A stretch of DNA of 63,008 bases, counting the filler, from Globobulimina sp. (taxonomy: Eukaryota): NCBI GenBank assembly GCA_003354225.1. It is 32 parts of 32 records of this genome, joined end to end, with 100 filler letters (N's around TTAATTAATTAA, not from the genome) between each part and the next. Parts side by side here need not be neighbours in the genome. Positions count along the whole stretch, not along the records: positions 11,843 to 13,715 come from PIVH01011023.1; 31 more parts are not named here. The stretch is one strand, 5' to 3'. The notes below the pieces were generated by a model. It ran no database searches and was not told where the DNA came from. It saw nothing but the letters and a program-made list of their open reading frames with translations. A program made the translations under genes and the position numbers. This document shows positions 1 through 59,067 of the stretch, one piece after another (positions within the stretch are counted from its first letter, which is position 1; every line of letters begins with the position of its first letter).

Positions 1-272
1 TTACTCACATATTGCCCGTCAGATGTTTCGCTTGTCTCGCGAAGCACAATTAAGCAACAATCTATGCGCAATTTTGATGCGCAGTTTGTTGACAAATGCG
101 CAATTTGCGAGCAATCTATCCATGGTTTTTGGGTGGCTTTTTGACATCACCTCTTAGTCAACGCATCAACAATAAAAATTCTGTGCCCACGCAGTACCAC
201 TAAGAAATTCTGCCTCGACATGGCCAGTGAGTGAGGTAGGAAGGAGAAAGTTCGAACGAAAGATTCATCACC

Positions 273-1300
273 ATAACAATTAAATCAACAGTCCAATTGC
301 GACAAAATTTGGTACGGTTAATTGACAGTCCGTAAGGTTTTAACACTAAAAGTGCATATTATGTGAATATAAAGGAAAGAATGATATAATCATTTTTGGT
401 ACAGACCAAACAATATAAAAACTGTACGTACGTATAAACGAGGCAAAACTGTTCGTAGAGCACAAAGGCATAATAATCGTTCTTAACTTTTGCTATCAGC
501 TAGTCAAGGCATCAACTGGAAAAATACTGTACCAACAAAATAACAGTAAGAAATTTTAGTGTGACATAGTCAGCCAGTAACCTGGCAAGAAGAAAATTTC
601 AACCAAACATTCGTTAGTATAACAATTAAAAGAAAGGTGTAATTGCGACGAAAACTTGGTACAATTACTTTACAGTAGGTCACACATATTTACAAACACT
701 ACTGATTTCGTTTGATTCCCTGCTTTCTTTTCCAGACACCAATTTTTATTCCATTTTCTGCATTAGCTGAGTACAAACATCAATGAAAGTTCAAAGATGA
801 ATCCAAAAAATACAACACTGTTAGTCTATCTCTATGTCTATCTCTCAAATGTCGGTTTGTCTATGTGTTTATCTATATGTCCGTGTATCTGTGTGTCTAT
901 TTTTCTGTCTATCTTTTTGTCTGTCTGTATATCTCGCTGTATGCTTATGCATGTGTATGTGTGTCTCTTTCTATATCACTCTTAGTGTTTGTCTGTGTAT
1001 CCTTTTGTCTGTCTGTCTATCTCTTTATGTGCTTATGTATGTATCTGTGTCTCTGTTTGTATATTAGTCAACGTGTCTATCTCTCTACCTATCTGTCTCT
1101 CTATCTGACTGTTTGTCTGCTTTTCTGTGTATCTGTGTGTCTCTCTGACTGTCTGTTTGTTTGTCTCTCTCTCTCTCTGTCTACTGTTAATTGACAGGCC
1201 GTAAGGTTTTAACAGTAAAAGTCGATATTATGTGAATATAAAAGCAAACAATGATATAATCACTTTCGTAGAGATCAAACAATATAAGAACTGTATGTAG
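273..1300 (+). repeat. Diverged direct repeats: ~312-434 vs ~1181-1300, and ~273-329 vs ~619-676
   Basis: gttaattgacagNccgtaaggttttaacaNtaaaagt...tattatgtgaatataaa...caaacaatataa...actgta occurs twice; ataacaattaaa...aattgcgac...ttggtac occurs twice. Confidence 0.8.
824..1185. repeat. Degenerate (TCTG/TCTA/TG)n microsatellite
   Basis: Continuous pyrimidine/TG simple repeat; explains the spurious C/L/S/V-rich ORFs. Confidence 0.9.
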
Positions 1301-1874
1301 TTATATGAATGTCAGCACCAGGATTGCATCTGTTTCGACACATAGGATAACCGACTTGATCGCATTTACGTGGCTTCCCGGATAAACCTTTTTGACATAT
1401 TTGGGGATCGTCTGTATGGGCTAAACCTTCATTGTAAACTGGCTATCTAATCGATAAAGTTTGAGACAGGACAGCTTTTCCGATATAGCATATTATTATT
1501 ATGCCTGGCACATGTCAAAGTACGCTGTATCAGCGCCGTTTCGAACGCAATACTTTGATGACTGCTTGGCATGTCTAGCATATAGTCAGAACAAGATTCA
1601 GCTTAATTTATTCTTTTAGTGCGCTGTCTGCTTTAAAGCGTTTCCTCTTCGTACGGAAACTGATGGTTTTACTTGCAATGTGAGAGTTAGTGTGTATCTT
1701 GACCTCCCAGCTGCACCAGCCTAGTCTGCCAGTCCTTAGTAAGCCTTTATTATTTTAATCTTTTTAACTTATAAATCAGTCTCTAGGCAGTTATTATTAT
1801 TATAATAATTTTCAGCACTTTGTGACTGATCCTTCTTCATCGTCATCATCTGCGATTCCCTCAATTGCCACTAC

Positions 1875-1974
1875 NNNNNNNNNNNNNNNNNNNNNNNNNN
1901 NNNNNNNNNNNNNNNNNNTTAATTAATTAANNNNNNNNNNNNNNNNNNNNNNNNNNNNNNNNNNNNNNNNNNNN
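1875..1974. other. Artificial contig spacer N44-TTAATTAATTAA-N44, the first of 31 (the rest start every ~1972 bp, from 3849 to 61039)
   Basis: Identical 100-bp blocks with a stop-in-all-frames linker; the contigs between them decrease steadily from 1874 to 1870 bp. Confidence 0.99.
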
Positions 1975-3848
1975 AACCATGACGAATATCATTTGGAAGC
2001 ATTTTGTTTTATGGCGTGTTTGATTAACTATCCGCCGATATTTATTATTGAAGACTTCCATGTGACTGATTTTCATTTGTTGCGAAAAGATATCATCGAC
2101 GGAGAGAGGAACAAAGTATGGCAAGTTTTGAAAAAGTTATCTGAGCAAAATGTCGATAAATGGTCCTCCGACAAAAGTGGTTCTGGAAGAGGTGGGAAGG
2201 GCGCTTTGGATAAGAATTTATCGCGACATGCTGCCTCAAGCCGGGAGCGATTTTGTTGCAGAGCTGGTCGCGATACGTGTTTTATGGACATTTATATTGA
2301 TATGTACTTTAATGTGGATCTCTTGAATCAACTGAAAAAACAGGAAGTAGGCTGCAGTACGAATAGATATGAATGGGTCAAAACTATTAAAATAACGCCA
2401 CTCTTTTATCATTTAGTAGTGGACCAAGAGAAATCGTGTCGAATGTTTCGATTAAAAGCGCATTTACGGAGGTCTGCGGTTACATTTTTACGGCTGGAAT
2501 TCCAATCAGCTCAACGCAAACCGCGCTGGTCTGAAGAATGGGAGTATGGCTCCTTTACACGACAGCAAGTGTATAATATGTTAACTTATGGCTTTTCCTG
2601 TGGCGCCAAATATGAATTTTTCTTTTTTTCTGATGGCCAGTTGCGCGAAAAGGTATGTTGGATGTATTCGTGCCAATTATCGAGAAACTTCAATTCCATC
2701 AAAGCTGTGCGAAACAATATGGGCAACTTTGAGAAAATACGCAATCCCGGAAAGAAAATGTCGAGAATGGGACTATATAACACCAAATCTACGCAAATCG
2801 CCACTGTAAAGTACTCGCAAGTGGAGTTTGTGGACGATCCCGTGGCCAAAGACGGCATCGAACTCACTGATGGATGCTCGATAATTAGTAAACAAATCGT
2901 GGATGAAAAGGTGGATAGAAATGTAGTGTCAATGTTGGCGCGGTTGGGAGGCGCTAAGTGTATGTTGATAGCATTGCCGAATGAATGGATTCGAACAGTA
3001 ATTAAAACGGATCAGAAAAATAAAAGAGAGATATTATTAAAGAAAATTAATCAGGAAAAGTCCAACGAAAATAAAGTAAAACTGCTCAAGCAGATATTGC
3101 AAGATAATGAAAACCGCAATTTCGACGCTGATGTGGTGATTACAAAGTCGTCGAATAAGTTTACATTCGATAAATATACGTTGGAGATCGGAGTAAAAAC
3201 AGTGACTGAGAGTTCCGGTGCATTGATCAACAAAGAATTCATCGGTGCGGCATATTGTCATTTTTATTTGAAAAAAGAAGAGAAAGCGTTTGAACAAACA
3301 TTACAGAAATATGCTTTATTATGGTTTGACATTTTGAATGGAGCGAGAAGGCCAAAAAATGGAAATAGGTTTGCCCGGATTGACCGTAAAAGTGCCGAGA
3401 TATTCTTACATTGCAACAAACATAAAGGAAGACATAAATTTTTATTATTTGATATGGGTTTGGTGAAAAGCGCCATTCGGGAGAATCAGCGTAGAGACCG
3501 CCGTAAATTTTGGCTGAAAAAATATCAAATTCGAGATCTTGAGTGGTTGTCTCGTATACGGGGTGAAGCTGACAGATGTAGTAACATTGCGACAGAGTGT
3601 TGGGTGAAGTTAGTGCGAAAACTTGGCATTTTTCTACCATGGCCTTCATGTCGAATGGAAGGTGTTGCAGATTGGACAGGTACGCTCTCAGAAAATGAGA
3701 TATTTTTGAAAGTCGAAGTACCACCAACTGTACAAATATGGTGCAAGAAATGTAACGCAAAACAACTGGAACCTTTGGAGCCGGTTTGTTCGAATCAATT
3801 TTGTAAAACACCGCGCCCAAAATATCTGGTATACGAAGGCCAATGCGG
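1975..3848 (+). CDS. Cellular RNA-dependent RNA polymerase (RDR/QDE-1 family), partial at both ends
   Basis: Motifs in RDR order: FFFFSDGQLREKVCW, FEKIRNPGKKMSRMG, TDGCSIIS, ARLGGAKCML, RMEGVADWTGTLSENEIF; the DLDGD motif would lie beyond the contig end. Confidence 0.88.
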
Positions 3849-3991
3849 NNNNNNNNNNNNNNNNNNNNNNNNNNNNNNNNNNNNNNNNNNNNTTAATTAA
3901 TTAANNNNNNNNNNNNNNNNNNNNNNNNNNNNNNNNNNNNNNNNNNNNTCGAAGTACATACAATCTACAAATTATAATATGTATTAAACCA

Positions 3992-5740
3992 GTGCCATAT
4001 TTTGCTTTTTCTCTGTTGGAATGGGTCGGCGATGGCACATATACAGTCCAATAATATTACATGTGTGGGACACTGCGACGGATATCGGTGTTATCATTGA
4101 TTGGCTGCAAGTTGCCGAAATTCAAACATTTTGGACCCACGACGTAACCTCATTATATTATGCTGTTTTGGCAATTTTATCCATAGCAATGTACCGTGTG
4201 ATCAGCGGCATTGCAATATGGAGAACATTAGGATGGAAATCCGGTGTTGCACAGTTTTTGGATGTAATGGTTTACAGAGAAGTATATGAAGCCTATGTGG
4301 ACGAAAAAATAAGGCCAACTATGCATTTTAGATGGATTCGAAAAATGGAAGGTATGTTTACGTGTGACAACTGTGCGGAATTCATGTCAATATAACAAAC
4401 ATATCGCACAGCAAATTTTGAAAGTTTCTGGCAAAGTCTTATTCAAACGGTATGGATCTTGAAGACTGAAGGCTTTGTTACTCCTTTGATGATATCTTCC
4501 ATTGTGTTGTCTGTATATTCCATCTCAAGCTCTATAATAAAAGACGATGAGTGGAAATTTGGAGGTACTGTATATGTTATTTGTTGCTCTGACATACTGC
4601 ATATAAAATGTGTACATAACAGGTAAGGACGGTAACTTCAGGAAAAAATGTCCGCCACATCCAAAATTTTTGGTGCGTTCTGCGTTCAGAATCAGCGAAG
4701 TGTTGGCCAGGTTATCCATAATGTCCTTGTTATGGCTGAAAACAACGGGGTATTATCTAAGTGGATGGTGTATATATCAGGGAATATTTTATTTGATGTT
4801 GTATAAACAACATAAATTAGGCAAAGATCCTGGCAATGCGTTCGCGATAATTATTGGTTATCCAAACCTGTCGTATCGAGACAACGATTATGTTAATTTT
4901 GTGTTGATGTTTACATATTTATCTATATTTATGATGATTGTTTTTGTGAAATAGCGAGAATTGAATTGGTTGATACAATTATTTGGAACATTAACTCTTT
5001 GGACACCGTTTTCTTATATTTGCAGGAGCAATGTAACGATTTTTTATGCAGCACGATTTAGCGAGAATTTTATTATTTTAATTGGATGTTTGGTGCTTGA
5101 GATGTTGTCATGGCGTCGGGATGACTGCGCGAAGCTATTTTTGTGTGTAGATATGTTCTTTTTCGGTGCTGCTATTGTTGGTATATTGTGCAATACATTT
5201 TTAATACGGATATATTTCAGTAAGATCCGAAGGTATTTGCATGAGATTGAGTATGGATTAAATTTGGATATTTGGGGTGTTTTAAAACAATCAGTGGAAG
5301 ATATAGATTTGTTGCGCCGTTTTATAAAGCGAGCTCCGACCACAATCAATAAAATAAATGTCGATGGAATGACGACTTTAATGGAAGCATCGAAACATAG
5401 CGATTTGACCGTATTGTTGTGTATATTGCACGGTGATGTTTATTATGATAAGAAAGCTTTGTTAACGGAGACAGTGACTGCGTTACAAAGGTTTGCATAC
5501 AATAAACAACAAAGAATGTTACACTTTAAAAAGCGAAAAGGAGATAAATGGCTGGCACCAAATGGATATATACGAGATAATGTAGGAAGGAGTTGTATTT
5601 ATTATCTGATGAAACAACATGCAAAATATCGTCAAACCATTTACAGGAATAATATTTGGAAACAAAATAAAGATTTCGAGGTATACTGTATATTAATTTG
5701 TAATAGACCTTTGGAATTTATCCGGTCGAATTCGCCTTGA
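3992..5740 (+). CDS. XK-related (Xkr scramblase-like) membrane protein with C-terminal ankyrin-like repeats; multi-exon, partial, boundaries approximate
   Basis: WDTATDIGVI; removing intron 4352-4411 gives MEANFESFWQSLIQT; FRISEVLARLSIMSLLW; ankyrin-like NKINVDGMTTLMEASKH and RDNVGRSCIYY. Confidence 0.7.
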
Positions 5741-6153
5741 GTTCGAGTGCTTGAAACCTATGGTGGAGTGTATATGATCTCTAAAGGGGTTTGTATGCAA
5801 ATATATTTCTCTACATCGAGTCNNNNNNNNNNNNNNNNNNNNNNNNNNNNNNNNNNNNNNNNNNNNTTAATTAATTAANNNNNNNNNNNNNNNNNNNNNN
5901 NNNNNNNNNNNNNNNNNNNNNNAGGCAAAGTCGAGTATCATCATTGGGTATTAAATTAAATATAAATAATACAAAAAATATTGAATTATTAAAACCTATG
6001 AATAGTGTCAATGAATGGAATGAATTCTCCGAATGGATGGGTGATAATATTAATGTCACAAAAAAAGTCAAAAACTCAAAGTGTAACTTACTACAAAATG
6101 TATTGTCCAAAGCAAGATAATGCAGCCTTGAAATTGATGGATTTAAGAATGAG

Positions 6154-7272
6154 ATGTTATATTTATTTAATAAATTAAATGATGATATTATTAACGATAC
6201 TGTGTTGTTTGGAAGAATATCACTAAGACATGAACAACAAATTAAAACATTTGCAAATAATCAAAAAATATGGATTGAAATGAAAATAAAATACGAGGAT
6301 ATTATAAATAAATTGGAACAAAATGAAGAAAATATCAGAGAGCAATTTAGTGAATTTAAGAGGGAAAATGTTGGAAAATTGAAAGAGATAATTATTGAAA
6401 GAAATGAATTAAAATTAAAATTAAATTCACAGAATGATGTTTCATTGAAATATAACAATCGATTACAAGATTTATTGGAAAAATTAAAATGTGCTGAGAA
6501 TGAACGTGAAACTTTGAAAATTGAGATAAAAAATTTGAAACAAAAAAAAGTGGAATTTGTATCGAAAGAATGTGATCGATTAAGAATAAAATTGGAAGAC
6601 AAACAACAGGAAATTAGTGATTTTTGTGATGCTTTTAATAAATCACAAAATATCATTGAAAAATTAATGAAATATATTGTTGAATTGAAAGAAAAGCAAA
6701 AAACAAAAAGTTTTGATGCGAATATTGATGAGAAACAAGAAATAATCCGAGAATTATTGAATAAAAATCAGAAGATGACAGTTGAAATAATTAATGATGA
6801 AAACATTGGATGTGATGATAAATTATCTGTTTTAAAACAGTGGAATCAAACTATTGTTACTGAACTGAAATATGCAATTTCGGAAAAGAATGACTTAAAA
6901 TATAATAATATTTTGATGAATGATCAACTGAGAAAAGGCAACATAGTGTTGGGTAAAATGATGGAACGGTTGAAATTGTATGAAACAACGGTTGGTGATA
7001 CAAAACAATATGATGGTAATTTGAGTGAAGAAAATGCGATGAAATTAACAGAAATGAATGTTGTTCGAAATGTATATGAAAATAAAATAGATATTCAATC
7101 AAAAGAAATTCAGAGATTAAGTAAAGAGAATTGTGATTTAAGAGAGGAAATGGAAGCAATGAAAAGATTGATAGAATGTGAAAATTTGAAAAATGATAAT
7201 GTTAAAAATGGCATACATATAGAAAGCGAAAGATGTCAATTAGAACAATTGCATGATCTTCAAATTATTTAG
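6154..7272 (+). CDS. Long coiled-coil protein of unknown function
   Basis: 372-aa E/K/N/L-rich heptad ORF. Confidence 0.6.
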   Translation: MLYLFNKLNDDIINDTVLFGRISLRHEQQIKTFANNQKIWIEMKIKYEDIINKLEQNEENIREQFSEFKRENVGKLKEIIIERNELKLKLNSQNDVSLKYNNRLQDLLEKLKCAENERETLKIEIKNLKQKKVEFVSKECDRLRIKLEDKQQEISDFCDAFNKSQNIIEKLMKYIVELKEKQKTKSFDANIDEKQEIIRELLNKNQKMTVEIINDENIGCDDKLSVLKQWNQTIVTELKYAISEKNDLKYNNILMNDQLRKGNIVLGKMMERLKLYETTVGDTKQYDGNLSEENAMKLTEMNVVRNVYENKIDIQSKEIQRLSKENCDLREEMEAMKRLIECENLKNDNVKNGIHIESERCQLEQLHDLQII

Positions 7273-8193
7273 TGCTGGCGTTACTTATTACATTTTCAGT
7301 TTTATAACAACATGCTATTTTATTTTGTTTGAGAAAAGTTATTTTTTTTGTCATATACATAAAAGGCCGTGATGAATACAAAAATGAAATGAAGGCGTTG
7401 ATGATTTTCTCAAACCTCCACAAAATAATCACCAAAAAAAAAACCCCACCAACCCAACTTTTCACATTTCCCTTTCACATTTCCCTTTCACAACACCAAA
7501 TTCCTCTGTCCTCACTAACAATATAAATACTATATATATTGCTGTATTTCATCGTGTTGCAGCAGACAAATTCAAACAATATACAAAAAAACACAAAAGT
7601 AAACTTCCACATTTGATATTCACAAATTCAGTGACATATCCAATTACAGTTAATCCATACATTTCTTATACGCAATAACGCACCATTATACACCTGAAAT
7701 CGTATACATTATACAGATTATATTATTAACGCAAATTAATTGTAGATAACATATTGGTTTAAAGCCAAACGTGCATGTTGTCAATTTTAAAGATGANNNN
7801 NNNNNNNNNNNNNNNNNNNNNNNNNNNNNNNNNNNNNNNNTTAATTAATTAANNNNNNNNNNNNNNNNNNNNNNNNNNNNNNNNNNNNNNNNNNNNCAGT
7901 TTCTGCAAAGTATATCTGTGATTACAATGCATATGTTTGCACACAGAAACACGCGTTTTTATAATTTTCTGTGTGTAATTCAAATGATATCGTAATATTT
8001 AAGCGGAGAACAAATACAAAACACCGTGGAAACACTTTTAACACAATGCTACTTTGATGAATTATATAAACACAGATTGGACACTAATACTTTAGAATAG
8101 GACTTGTTTGAAACACTGCTCATCACCATCTCCTAACAAAACGACTTGCGAATTTGCGGATTTTAAAAGTATGTGTTTCAAACAGGTCCTATT

Positions 8194-8433
8194 CTAAAGT
8201 ATATAATATAGAGGCATGCACTGACCCAATTTAGCGTTTTCATTGGAATTTAATGAATCAATGTTGATCTCATTCGCAATTAACGATTCTACATCTTCTA
8301 AATTTGTAAAATATGTTGATGTTGATTGAGTTGGCATAGTGTTCGATATCGACTCAGTAGATTGTGATGACTTAGTATACATTATACATATCAATAATAT
8401 AAGTGCTAACTCGAGACTTTGAAAAGAACACAT
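8194..8433 (-). CDS. First exon of a probable secreted protein
   Basis: ATG followed by hydrophobic LELALILLICIMY and an S/T-rich segment. Confidence 0.35.
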   Translation of the reverse strand: MCSFQSLELALILLICIMYTKSSQSTESISNTMPTQSTSTYFTNLEDVESLIANEINIDSLNSNENAKLGQCMPLYYIL

Positions 8434-8692
8434 TGTTGGTTACATGTTTTTTGCTTTGTTTTTTATTGTCCAAAACTCGTCGGCCATGACAACACAAAAA
8501 ATTACTCGTACCATTGTTGTGGATGCAGTGTCTGCAACAAAAACGAATATTCATCCAGATTATAAAAATAAGAATATGCATGGATTTAAAACATAAAACA
8601 ATAAATATGTTACAAACAAAACACAAAATAAATAATTACTATTATTAGAAGGTATTATATTTATATAAACAAACTAAAATCTCTTTTTTTTT

Positions 8693-9769
8693 TCAAGTAA
8701 CATTTGATTTTATTGTGTTAACCATATGAACTACATCGCCATCACCATCATAGCCCTCTGCCTGTTCTCCAGAATAATTATCATTTGCCAATGCTCCCGG
8801 TTCAGGTCCAATCAATTCAACATATCCTTTTGTAACATTATCATCTTTCGATGTTACCATATCTGTCGCATTGCCAATACCATCATATTGCTGCTCTTCG
8901 CTGACTGGTTTGCCGGATATGTGACTTGATAGCAGTTCTCTCTTTAAATCATTGTTTGCGTGTTTCAAGCGTTGTACTTTCTTTTTTTGCAACAAAAATA
9001 ATCCACCCAACACCAAAAACAATGCGATAACAACTACCAAGGTTATGATTGTGGGAGATAATGTTTTTGACGATTTAGTGTCGCGCATTGACAATGTAGT
9101 ATATTGAGTGAGCTGTGTTTGTGTGGCAGAATGTGAAATGGCTGGACTTTGGCTTGGAATTATTGCATTTTCAATTGTTGGTTTCATTGTTGGTGATAAT
9201 GATGGAATGGTTGGGTGAAATGTTGGATTTATTGTTGGTGTCATTGTAGGTGCAATGGACGGAGCCACTGTCGGTGCTGAACTTGGAGCTAAAATTGGTG
9301 CTGAACTCGGAGCTAAAATTGGTGATATTGTTGGTGCAAATGTCGGTGCTGAACTTGGAGCTAAAATAGGTGCAATGGATGGTGTTTGTGTTGGTGCTGC
9401 ATACGTAATGTATAAAAATGAATTATATGATTTGCAAAATACATTTTTCGATATATATACAACCTGACGATGGTGCAATAGATGGAGCCAATGTTGGTGC
9501 AAATGAAGGATTATTATTTGGTGCCATTGATGGTGGCGTTGTTGGTGCTGAATATAGATTATGTTTTGTAAAATATAAATATATCGTTACTCAGAGATAT
9601 TAACCTGATGATGGTACAGATGTCGGTGTAAATGATGGTGCCTTTGATGGGAAAGGTGTAGGTGCTGAACTAGGCCAATTTGAAGGGGGAACTGTTGGTG
9701 TTAGAGTGGGTGCAATGGAGGGTGGCTGCGTTGGAGCGAGTGCAGGAGCTAAAATCGGTGCTGTGGAAT
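8693..9769 (-). CDS. Type I membrane protein with a PT/APT (mucin-like) repeat stalk, 5'-partial, multi-exon
   Basis: APSSAPTFAPT repeats over several small exons; TM IIITLVVVIALFLVLGGLFLL followed by KKK. Confidence 0.75.
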
Positions 9770-11526: not shown

Positions 11527-11844
11527 ACTGATTTATAGGTAATTAATAATACAAAATGCTGATACTGCTAAATTTAAATTCACAAAGAGCTCACGTTAAA
11601 CAAAAACTGTTACTGTTAATATAAAGATAAAAAAATATTTAGATCAAAACAAAAAAAAAAGCAAGTGTTAACAAACCGCATCATCAATTTAATATATTGC
11701 ACTTATATAATACAACTATTTTGAGAGACATAGTTCGCACTGNNNNNNNNNNNNNNNNNNNNNNNNNNNNNNNNNNNNNNNNNNNNTTAATTAATTAANN
11801 NNNNNNNNNNNNNNNNNNNNNNNNNNNNNNNNNNNNNNNNNNGA

Positions 11845-13596
11845 CCCCGTCGTTTACAGGAAGATGTAGCAAATCGTGGAGGGAATGGTATTGGATGTTA
11901 TACTGAATATAGTACCATGATAACTGGCATGAATGGAACTAGTCAGAATCAATTTGAAGAAATATGGTGTACCTTAGCAGATAGCAAAGTAAGCGCTAAA
12001 GATTTTACCGGTAAAAATTATTGCATAAAAGCAATAGAAAATAATCATTTTCAATTTATTGTTATGGGAACCATCAAAGATTACTTAGATTTTATTGGAA
12101 AAATTGATAGTGGTGCAGTATCACGAACAGACGTGTATATATTAGATAAGTTTTGTAGATATTTTTATCAAAATATGAAATATGAGCAAAATCATTCAGT
12201 AATTGAAAACTGGATGAAATATCAAACTGCATTACAAATTATTTCAACCTATCAAAAAGATGAAGATGCAGATATTGATATTGATATTGATATTGATCAA
12301 GAACAAGAACAAAAAGATGAAGATGAAGATGAAGATGTAGATATTGATATTGATATTGATATTAATCAAAAAGATGAAGATGTGACCATTAAATTTCGAA
12401 CTGATCCAATTATTTTTAAATTTCCGCATAGTAAGTTATTAGAATTATTTCATAGTGTTACTGAAAACGAAACAGGAATTATAGCGGCAGAAAAATTGCA
12501 TACGACAATGATTGATGATTTTGGAGCAAAATATAACAAAGAAATGAATTTATATGTTATCCCTCACAGTTGTGAACATTTAGTAGCGACTGATTATGTA
12601 GCATATATTTGGAATATAGAAAATAAGCAAACAATGTTATGGTCGATTGACGATATAAATCCGCATTATGCAGAATTACAATGTGATTCATTGTACACGC
12701 GAATAACTCGACGTGCTCTCAATTCCGCAATAAATCTACAATGTCTTTCCTTTTATGATGAATTAATAAGAAGATTTGATAACGGCACATTAATGAATTT
12801 TAATATTGAGAGATTTTCGTTAATATCTAAGGATAATATGCGTGACGCGATTAATTTACAAGGAGAACTTAATTGGGTAAATGAAGCAATACTAAAACCA
12901 TTTAATGACCTTGGTATTGACTTTAGTTCAGCAACCAAATTGCCAGCAACTCTCAAGAAACAATTGCAAAAACAAGGAGTGAAAAATGGGAAACCAATTG
13001 TTGCCATAGAACTTGATAGTATTGATATGTTTGAATTGATTGCATCTGTAGTGATTGGTGTCAAAAATTTTGGATCCAATGGCGACTTAAGTTATCATTT
13101 TCGAAATCATAAATGCATCACTCCGGAAGTTATGAGAAAAGTATTATATTTATTACAGGAGAAATCAATTATTAAAGTCATAACAAATAAAAGACAAATT
13201 AAATATGAGTTTAAACCATTGGTCGAAGCTAATACAAATGCATATAATTCGAATGCATTTTATTTATTACAACATTTAGAACATTCCGATGCAGCAGCCA
13301 AAGCAAGGATCGTCATTGGTGCTATCAATATAGAAACATTATTAACTCAAACAGAAACATCTGCGGATAACAAAGATCGAGTTAGAAATGCATACAAATA
13401 TTGTTTAAAGGAAGAAATTAGAGAACAAAAGGAATTTATTTCGGATTTATTTCAAGAATATGCCAGATTAGCACCAATATCCATTGCAGGTGGGAGATTA
13501 ACACCAACTAATCCAGCGATTCAAAAGGGAAGTAAAAGAAAACGAGACGATAAAAACAATAATTCAGGACCTAGTAAGAAGAAAGCTAAAAAATAA
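11845..13596 (+). CDS. DUF3987/YfjI-like (MCM-related AAA+) helicase module with winged helix and NLS, 5'-partial
   Basis: Frame open from the contig edge: PRRLQEDVANRGGNGIGCYTEY...LADSKVSAKDF...FQFIVMGT...DSGAVSR; lid-like RRALNSAINLQCL...ISKDNMRDAINL; C-terminal KRKR...KKKAKK. Confidence 0.55.
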   Translation, partial: PRRLQEDVANRGGNGIGCYTEYSTMITGMNGTSQNQFEEIWCTLADSKVSAKDFTGKNYCIKAIENNHFQFIVMGTIKDYLDFIGKIDSGAVSRTDVYILDKFCRYFYQNMKYEQNHSVIENWMKYQTALQIISTYQKDEDADIDIDIDIDQEQEQKDEDEDEDVDIDIDIDINQKDEDVTIKFRTDPIIFKFPHSKLLELFHSVTENETGIIAAEKLHTTMIDDFGAKYNKEMNLYVIPHSCEHLVATDYVAYIWNIENKQTMLWSIDDINPHYAELQCDSLYTRITRRALNSAINLQCLSFYDELIRRFDNGTLMNFNIERFSLISKDNMRDAINLQGELNWVNEAILKPFNDLGIDFSSATKLPATLKKQLQKQGVKNGKPIVAIELDSIDMFELIASVVIGVKNFGSNGDLSYHFRNHKCITPEVMRKVLYLLQEKSIIKVITNKRQIKYEFKPLVEANTNAYNSNAFYLLQHLEHSDAAAKARIVIGAINIETLLTQTETSADNKDRVRNAYKYCLKEEIREQKEFISDLFQEYARLAPISIAGGRLTPTNPAIQKGSKRKRDDKNNNSGPSKKKAKK

Positions 13597-13996
13597 AAGA
13601 GTTAGATTGTAAACACTTATTTAAATTCATAAATTAAATTAAAAAGTCAGATAAAAAAAAAAAAAAAAAAAATACATAAAGATGAAATGTTAAAGCTAAT
13701 TTCAAATTAATATTTNNNNNNNNNNNNNNNNNNNNNNNNNNNNNNNNNNNNNNNNNNNNTTAATTAATTAANNNNNNNNNNNNNNNNNNNNNNNNNNNNN
13801 NNNNNNNNNNNNNNNCTTTTTTTTGTCATTTTTGCTCTGCGATTTGCTTTGTTTATGCTTGACGACATGTGTTCGATTAATAATATTATACAGTATTTTC
13901 ACCAACGTTTATCTTGTGTTTTTAGCAACGTTTTCTGATTAATTCATGTTTGGCTAAGTTTTTCCACACTTTAAGTGAGGAAAAACTGTACGTGAA

Positions 13997-57196: not shown

Positions 57197-59067
57197 AACT
57201 GGTGTCACACCTGCTTCTTGATGGCGAGTGAAAATTTCAGCCAATCCACCAGTGATTCCTTTTTCTCTTAACAGCGAGATACTCTGTTCATCAGGAACCA
57301 CAAAGTATATGTTAGGAGGTGTAGTGGATAACAAGTAGGGAACCAGTGCAGATTGGATTGTACAGTGGTTACTGAATAAATCTACCTTTCTCTCACGCCA
57401 TTGTTCTAACAATGTCTCAAGAGCAGGAATCATACAAAGACAATCTATTTTGACATATTCCATTATCCAGTCATACAAAGTCTTGCATTTTGTTTCATGC
57501 CATAATTTTACAAATTCTTGATAATTATTTTTGATTTCATTCTCATTTTTTCCCAGGGTGTTACCTTCCCCAATGTCAGAAGTGAAATCAGATATCTCTG
57601 GAATACCAAAATGTTTGAGATCATAGACTGTTTCAATCTTTTTCAGAAATTTATATGGAAACCACGCTTTGTCCACTTTGTCTTTTTGGTCTTTGGCAAA
57701 ATTAGAAACAAATGATCGCAAGGTAACAGCCTGACCACCCAAATAATTCAAAACATCAAGAAATCGTATATTGTTCCCCAAAATAGCATCATAACGGCTG
57801 GCACCTTGTTTCAACAGAAAATGTACTCCCGAATTTTTCTTTCCTTTTATCTTCTCGTTAGTTTTACTTTCCTCTGTTTCGTCATCGTCATCATCTGCAT
57901 TTTGCACTTTATCCATATTCTGCATTGAGTCCAAACCATTTCCAAATTGATGGAGTAAAGGAAGTAATTGTTCGCGCATCAAAGGTATATCGTATGAACG
58001 ACCATTGAAGGAAATCACATTAATCGTTTCCAAATGTCTATATAGCTTCACACGCAATAACTGCAAACGTCTCATAAAGTAGAATTGTTCTGGTTTCAGT
58101 TCAAGAACACCTATCTGTTCCTCTAGTTCATCAAAGATATATTGAGCTCGGGCAAAGTTTTTGTTCCTGGCCATGACCCGCCATTTTTCTACCTGAACCA
58201 AAAATTCTCTAAGATACTTGTCAGGTTGACTGGGGTCTTCATCATTGATAAATAACTTTGCTGTTTCCCCTGTAAGATTTGTTGCAGCACACAGAAGTAT
58301 TGCCTTGTGTTTATAGTCATACACTGTTTTGGTGGCAGACATCTCCTCGGTTGGCTTTTCCATACAACTTTCAGCATCAAAAACGACAAAATATGGTTGG
58401 AAAACATCCTCCATATTTTTCAGAAGAATTCCGATTTTTAACAACTGGTCCACCATGTTTGGTCGGTTCAGAAACTTGCCGGATTTGACCACTATCCTTG
58501 AACTGCCTTTGCAGTTAGCTTCATGCCAGTTACAATCACGTTTAGTGCGAGAAAACTTCTTGCACTTTTTACATCGAAAACCTCCAAGGAAACTTTCTTC
58601 GTGGTCAGGTTTAATCAGACAGAAATGTTTGTTTTTGAATCTGAACAATTGACAAATACCGTTTTTCTTTCCTTCCTGTGGAATTCGACAAAGAAATTTT
58701 GAATTGTTAGCCAATTCATTGTTCCCATATACTTTCAACCCAATATCGAAACAATTTTCAACAAGTTCAAGTTCACCCATTGTTATGCCAGGAAATGTAC
58801 AAAATCCAATTCCTCGTTCACCACAGTATTCTTTGCATAATTTTTTAGCTTCTTTTTCACACTTTTGTGGAGGTTTTTTAGTCAAGAAAAATGCTAAACA
58901 ACGAAATAGACAATAATTGTCATGAAGCAAGCTCTTTCCATTAGAACTTTTAATGAAACAATATACATCTCTCTGTTTCACTAATGAGTCGGGAAAGTCC
59001 TTTGGTTTTAAGTACCCACGAAGAGGAAAACCTTCCAGTGGAGTAACCTCTATTTGTCTATTTGTGG
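57197..59067 (-). mobile_element. Protein-primed family B DNA polymerase (Polinton/Maverick type), internal fragment
   Basis: DNYCLFRCLA, CKKC...HEANC, ExoI VFDAES, ExoII FNGRSYD, RFLD, KAWFPY, ExoIII YVKIDC, GITGGLAEIFTRH; intronless. Confidence 0.9.

Follow-up and report, generated by a model that had tools for sequence, protein, structure and literature searches.

In the reading that we favor on balance, the open reading frame at 11845-13596 is the downstream portion of a gene for a predicted DUF3987-like ring helicase, the second gene of a Mutator-like transposon; the helicase would let the element copy itself by replication and not by plain cut-and-paste. On the sequence, a FLYWCH-DDE transposase gene is followed by an AAA+ gene on the same strand, and the Walker A lysine, Walker B glutamate, and arginine finger of the AAA+ protein are all intact. 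The gene is a real member of an apparently undescribed helicase-bearing Mutator-like lineage, although this copy is probably broken.

The window (the whole stretch of 63,008 nucleotides that was analyzed) consists of 33 contigs of about 1.87 kb, chained via N/TTAATTAATTAA spacers and drawn from an AT-rich eukaryotic assembly of 70 Mb in 48,370 contigs (G000). Spacer layout and own-genome placement assign positions 11843-13715 to contig C11023 (1873 bp; both ends are assembly ends), which carries the 3′ part of the putative element. The C-terminal 583 codons of the DUF3987-like AAA+ (SF6-like) helicase gene, out of about 808, run along its plus strand in one uninterrupted frame that ends in TAA (11845-13596). 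The first-pass annotation had called this an intronless ORF. The single open frame of 583 codons stands, but the ORF is incomplete: Since the frame is open from the contig start, the gene is 5′-truncated, cut by the contig end (a point absent from that annotation), and its N-terminus lies on another contig, C1817. Contigs of run X1, which may be the source sample, match 11854-12253 and 12375-13642 with zero differences and stop short of the C1817/C11023 join; no contigs covering the C11023 region were found in runs X2 and X3, and no RNA dataset is listed as carrying C11023. Elsewhere in the window, we note a 624-codon open frame that by eye resembles a cellular RNA-dependent RNA polymerase (1975-3848, plus strand) and a 623-codon open frame, possibly of Polinton type, with zinc fingers and a segment that by eye resembles a polymerase-B exonuclease (57197-59067, minus strand). 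A separate contig (13816-15688, plus strand) has an mRNA capping enzyme-like gene, triphosphatase-like and then guanylyltransferase-like, whose catalytic motifs look degenerate by eye.

The start of C11023 and the 3′ end of C1817 share an exact overlap of 17 bases (11843-11859, plus strand), which is in frame, and the transcriptome protein P0001 spans both contigs colinearly. P0001 aligns with the ORF at 53% identity over 187 columns (E = 3e-65), has its Walker A motif upstream, and matches the missing N-terminal 224 codons at the extreme end of C1817 (52% identity, E = 6e-70). It had been proposed that the contig be extended in the 5′ direction to find Walker A and a primase domain. The helicase N-terminus on C1817 (3277-3948) does supply the Walker A motif, GPAGCGKT, but a primase domain (AEP or DnaG) is neither fused nor adjacent to the helicase in C1817 plus C11023 or in the related contig C18. 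In the joined gene, of about 808 codons, the Walker A motif is at 83 (leaving a preceding segment of only 82 residues), the Walker B glutamate at 246, and the arginine finger at 319.

The join also exposes an in-frame TGA at C1817 3949-3951, codon 225, directly preceding the first C11023 codon. The same column is arginine in 11 of the 12 relatives that have a residue there, two of the 11 being 99% identical to each other; the distant C18 group has arginine there too. The T of this TGA lies 18 bases from the contig end, C11023 begins one base after it, and among the run X1 contigs compared none bridges the 17-base join or covers the TGA base. Because it sits so near a contig end, on a base covered by no contig, the TGA reflects either a nonsense change of recent origin or an error of the assembly at a thin join; unless the base is such an error, the helicase copy is probably defective, with a stop in place of a conserved arginine. 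Recoding of the TGA is unlikely, since the column is arginine rather than tryptophan in 11 of 12 relatives, and a 21-nt GT-AG "intron" across it was set aside because it would remove conserved residues.

All segments quoted in the first-pass annotation as lying in order along the open frame were located at their places by position, and all are on the plus strand. We compared them in a MAFFT alignment (A7) of 17 rows, made up of family rows, four phage primase-helicases, and a prokaryote-like protein from contig C2982. The Walker B motif, GCYTE (11893-11907), has a glutamate that is invariant in 17 of 17 rows. That it reads TE instead of DE had been remarked on as a peculiarity; the TE is present, but it is the norm of the family. 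Across the family and the DUF3987-like proteins of phages, the residue before the glutamate may be T, S, E, D, or G, and the aspartate is likewise replaced (by G) in three of the four phage rows of A7. Since phage rows often read GE, we regard TE as a family trait and no lesion. The predicted presensor-1 hairpin and sensor-1 strand (11977-12072, with FQFIVMGT at 12049-12072) and the arginine-finger motif DSGAVSR (12106-12126; compare DGFLSR and EGLLPR in phage rows) stand in register with the phage primase-helicases in A7, the profile match in the hairpin and strand segment being weak. The Walker A lysine is shared with P0001, P0006, P0022, and the C18 protein.

An acidic D/I/E low-complexity insert of short tandem repeats follows at about 12259-12380 and varies among relatives. 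Beyond it, a helical block from TRRALNSA to ISKDNMRDAINL (12706-12858, the latter at 12823-12858) is conserved in relatives and is likely the AAA+ lid. A predicted winged-helix-like segment at 13090-13215, including MRKVLYLLQEKSII at 13132-13173, is conserved in P0003, P0005, and P0006, and residues 642-700 of P0006, in the winged-helix region, have a weak Pfam match to EAP30/Vps36 (E = 0.029). The motif scan found a bipartite nuclear localization pattern, KR-x10-KKKAK, at 13540-13590, as the first-pass annotation had it, and relatives of the helicase also terminate in basic clusters.

Among 1.84 billion representatives, a HMMER scan found 16 relatives at E ≤ 0.001: three expressed transcripts of Bolivina argentea and 13 metagenomic ENA/Logan records. 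As the B. argentea transcripts are the sole relatives with a named source, the host is probably a foraminifer. P0006 and P0022 are full-length proteins of 878 and 828 aa. Four of the fragments end, and two begin, at about one common column, which suggests an intron there in some hosts and hence that some of the helicase relatives may be spliced. Scans of a phage collection, IMG/VR, JGI metagenomes, and GTDB, which reach close relatives only, returned no relatives.

Language-model features associate the protein with DUF3987. In the ESM Atlas, the best matches of the window protein score 0.93-0.94, with 195-198 of 256 features common to DUF3987-named or related clusters; P0006 scores 0.96, with 217 of 256 features and 26 of 30 matches in PF13148 clusters, and its nearest cluster is 94% eukaryotic, mostly rotifer records. 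For both queries, the ten best family matches all fall in one family or clan (10 of 10). Searched by sequence against Pfam, PHROGs, and PDB, the window protein had no significant match. Pfam DUF3987 (PF13148) matched neither the window protein nor any of the 20 members of alignment A2, and a PF13148 scan of G000 left C11023, C1817, C18, and C25 all unmatched. A profile comparison with 11 DUF3987-like sequences gave a weak score of 27 (E = 0.03). Twenty shuffles reached at most 20.0, whereas the score of a spastin-like AAA control against A2 was higher than 27, at 35.6. PDB profile searches matched at the level of Walker A only. The best MCM match (E = 0.059) occurred in one of the 20 members, and neither the N-terminal OB/zinc domain of cellular MCM2-7 nor a Pfam match to the MCM P-loop domain was found; no Pfam DEAD or Helicase_C match occurred in the window protein, C1817, or the A2 members. 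We say "DUF3987-like" because the PF13148 cut-off is missed. The earlier assignment to a DUF3987-like AAA+ module thus holds for ESM features and motif register but falls below the Pfam threshold, and on those features and that register the protein most likely works like DUF3987. One paralogue in the assembly, on C4892 (15-2469), does pass the PF13148 cut-off (36.7 bits): It is a spliced, eukaryote-type DUF3987 gene with no neighbor visible on its contig, and a search for longer relatives of it found none. The PriCT-2 plus DUF3987 primase-helicase on C2982 (GC3 0.47) is prokaryote- or phage-like, and its probable source is a phage or bacterium assembled along with the host.

The weak clade assignment by HMM leaves some room for another function. 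The AAA+ protein could be a regulator of transposition that coats, bends, or scans target DNA, recruits the transposase, or remodels the spent transpososome, without any unwinding for copying. The layout of two genes, a DDE transposase and an AAA+ protein with no primase, fits this explanation, and there are precedents in IstB of IS21, TnsC of Tn7, and MuB, all of which recruit a transposase. Proteins of the IstB type are, however, roughly 260 aa long, unlike the helicase protein of about 800 aa with its predicted C-terminal winged helix. The sequence past Walker B aligns with phage primase-helicases, and for both queries the ESM features favor DUF3987, all ten of the best family matches falling in one family or clan. 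We therefore consider a purely regulatory role unlikely, though it is the strongest of the alternatives, and continue with the helicase reading.

The gene's partner lies on C1817 at 477-2988, on the same strand and 288 bp upstream of the helicase gene. It is a MULE transposase encoded in two frames (477-1694 and 1690-2988). Its interruption can be read as a frameshift or as a 37-nt GT-AG intron; the other candidate introns examined were at least 42 nt long. The FLYWCH finger of the transposase scores just under the cut-off (22.9 bits against 23.6; E = 9.5e-5), and its motifs IDGTF, ADSE, CLYH, and TNNLMECFN (D, D, CxxH, and E) are in register with other Mutator-like frames. By using nine of the 10 frames of G000 that match Pfam MULE (one was left out because its coordinates and score were identical to those of another), we built a custom profile, which matched the second half of the transposase with E = 4e-10, all reversed controls having E > 0.2. 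Pfam MULE (PF10551) itself matched neither C1817 nor C18, and we call the transposase "Mutator-like" because the link passes through the custom profile. The base composition is that of an element, with GC3 at 0.17-0.26 in the element frames versus 0.30-0.41 in six host-type frames. The first-pass annotation had offered a eukaryotic DNA element, a virus, or a domesticated copy. An uncharacterized eukaryotic mobile element agrees with what we find, but a virus does not: As the partner is a Mutator-like DDE transposase, we take the element to be a transposon, neither viral nor plasmid-borne in origin.

The pairing recurs. Both halves of the transposase matched one further contig, C18, in an uninterrupted frame of 1046 codons (24% identity over 645 columns, E = 7e-38). 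Farther downstream on that strand, C18 has small ORFs, a DnaJ-like frame (E = 0.011), and a 641-codon AAA+ frame cut at its 3′ end, which is homologous to the window helicase family (profile-profile probability 95.9%, E = 6e-9) and has an intact relative, P0023 (55%). This larger sister element, on the minus strand of C18 at 2-9331, thus comprises a MULE transposase, small ORFs, a DnaJ-like and RRM-like frame, and a DUF3987-like helicase, with the transposase before the helicase as on C1817/C11023. Because C18 was picked by its transposase only, the helicase there is an unforced result. In a background scan of the first 10 kb of each of 36 long contigs (C10-C45; 354,683 bases), with C18, P0023, and C25 rows removed from the profiles, there was one strong MULE match (E = 9e-28) and one strong helicase match (E = 3e-12), and C18 held both. 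Values near E = 0.01 were obtained for C25 and for a 68-codon frame of C34.

Other DDE-like genes of the assembly adjoin NTPase genes as well, on C75, C175, and C25, although several of these labels were given by eye. On C75 (777-8582), which came up in the MULE scan of G000, the MULE transposase precedes an OB-like frame, then a DnaJ domain (E = 7e-12) and an NTPase that by eye is D5/SF3-like; the order of J-domain and SF3 recalls polyomavirus large T. On C175 (730-6452), what follows the MULE transposase is also AAA+ but of a different type, a spliced gene that by eye looks DUF927/Cch-like. C25 (39-9389) has an AlkB-like 2OG-Fe(II) oxygenase (Pfam E = 7e-8), a Merlin-like transposase with a chromodomain, a spliced or split helicase that looks DUF3987-like rather than SF3, and a primase-like frame, "Merlin-like" and "primase-like" being labels by eye. 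The RPA-like labels on C18 and C75 and the AEP/primase-like label on C25, likewise by eye, found no match in Pfam or PDB. On C170 (382-7088), the assembly also has an apparently intact retroelement that by eye is DIRS/Ngaro-like: Its gag-like frames are accompanied by RT-RNase H and by a tyrosine recombinase.

The recurrence bears on whether the two genes belong together at all. The helicase could instead be a low-copy domesticated or captured foraminiferan gene or a virus remnant, with the MULE a chance neighbor or one that picked it up as a passenger in the manner of Pack-MULEs. The gene was found in one copy in G000, its relatives are expressed in B. argentea (some apparently spliced), no element ends were found, and C18 also has DnaJ-like cargo. 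Yet the pairing occurs twice, in one gene order and with transposases that are homologous to each other, and in the 36 long contigs the strong matches to both genes fall on one and the same contig. The family also varies more within this single genome (C1817/C11023, C18, C25, and C4892) than would a conserved host gene, and the copy in the window has a stop. Taken together, these points make domestication or chance adjacency improbable, and more so than the regulatory role above.

Flanking terminal inverted repeats, copy number, and recombinase or capsid genes had been put forward as the features to check. We found neither terminal inverted repeats nor a target site duplication on C1817 plus C11023; the ends of the element probably lie off these contigs. 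Own-genome searches of G000, whose counts are lower bounds, returned this one copy and no second. Among the ORFs in the 5.8 kb of C1817 plus C11023 there is no primase, polymerase, capsid, or recombinase, and neither these 5.8 kb nor C18 contain the protein-primed polymerase, capsid, or packaging ATPase of Polintons and DNA viruses, although the element may continue past the contigs. The 5′ 430 bases of C1817 were rejected as a terminal inverted repeat: They are the end of a dispersed repeat and have no match at the 3′ end. This repeat is about 840 bp long, has 22 DNA matches in G000 (72%-99% identity), and carries its own basic ORF of about 135 aa, with no terminal inverted repeats and no meaningful Pfam match. 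It adjoins unrelated host genes and large-ORF elements; C1817 1-432 is one end of it (L003), and its loci include L011, L012, L025-L027, L032, and others. On C53 and C631, clusters of long orphan ORFs lie beside the repeat, some with a possible RAG1/Transib-like motif by eye.

That the contig is a phage, plasmid, or bacterial contaminant we regard as very improbable: Although the assembly includes the prokaryote-like PriCT-2 plus DUF3987 gene of C2982 (GC3 0.47) and an IS256-like frame (C36323), the protein has no relative in phages, IMG/VR, or GTDB genomes, its named relatives are foraminiferan, and the locus combines a nuclear localization pattern and a eukaryote-type FLYWCH domain with an upstream repeat that has 22 matches in G000.

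Transposases of the IS256/Mutator family can make single-strand junctions that are resolved by replication into circles. Under the replicative reading, the transposase would nick and join an element end, and the helicase would load on the fork-like junction that results. It would form a ring and unwind DNA 5′ to 3′ as does the PriCT-DUF3987 protein AgaPH, opening the element so that host primase and polymerases could copy it. The copying may yield a circle or a second copy for insertion, with the donor kept. AgaPH is reported to be an oligomeric 5′-3′ helicase whose function depends on its Walker motifs and which binds its primase-polymerase (PMC11724360). DUF3987 is described as an SF6, MCM-related group with a C-terminal winged helix, and the same survey found no SF6 helicase in eukaryotic viruses (PMC4889955).

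A broader proposal, which we put forward tentatively and consider less probable than the reading of the single locus, is an undescribed class of eukaryotic self-replicating DDE transposons that repeatedly recruit phage-type replisome parts. These parts would be a ring helicase (DUF3987-like here and on C18 and C25; D5-like on C75) and, in some elements, a primase, a single-strand binding protein, and a J-domain loader. Amplification might be extrachromosomal or fork-driven, with Polinton-like logic but no polymerase or capsid, and the window locus would be the minimal, two-gene Mutator form. If a Mutator element does carry its own ring helicase, the long-standing question of how Mutator/IS256-type elements duplicate without loss at the donor site would become testable, and the locus would mark a route by which phage replication genes came into eukaryotic nuclei. 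The pairing also gives a context to orphan eukaryotic DUF3987 proteins.

With the DUF3987/YfjI SF6 proteins such as AgaPH, the window protein shares the order and, as aligned in A7, the register of Walker A, the Walker B glutamate, the predicted presensor and sensor-1 segments, and the arginine finger; it also shares a predicted C-terminal winged helix and the mobile-element context. Unlike them, it scores below the Pfam cut-off, has about 100 extra residues inserted between Walker A and Walker B, lacks a PriCT or AEP partner, bears a nuclear localization pattern, and is paired with a DDE transposase in a eukaryote. In the prokaryotic systems IS21 (IstA/IstB), Tn7 (TnsB/TnsC), and Mu (MuA/MuB), a DDE transposase is likewise followed by an AAA+ ATPase, but these ATPases are of the initiator clade, do not unwind DNA, and are much shorter.

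Among eukaryotic elements, FLYWCH-bearing MULEs (e.g., Phantom and MuDRx; PMC6446971) resemble the present element in their FLYWCH finger, their DDE triad with CxxH, and the presence of a second ORF. Here, in contrast, the second ORF is an AAA+ helicase-like gene, and neither terminal inverted repeats nor a target site duplication was found. The words "helicase" and "ATPase" occur zero times in the main text of that review. In the open-access literature, we found no MULE or other eukaryotic transposon described with a DUF3987/SF6 helicase, although subscription journals, Repbase, and supplements (e.g., Table S1 of PMC6446971) could hold one. KolobokH and AcademH are eukaryotic DDE transposons with RecQ/DEAD-type helicases, and Helitrons combine a Pif1 helicase with an HUH nuclease (PMC9587614, PMC10799480). 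AcademH and KolobokH are like the present element in encoding their own helicase downstream from a DDE transposase, but theirs is an SF2 enzyme of RecQ/DEAD type, whereas here a predicted ring-type AAA+ protein accompanies a Mutator-like transposase. Published MCM-clade DUF3987 helicases come from phages and from bacterial elements, and those eukaryotic DDE transposons that we found in print with a helicase carry SF2 enzymes; among the latter, the pairing of a Mutator-like transposase with a predicted ring helicase is apparently new.
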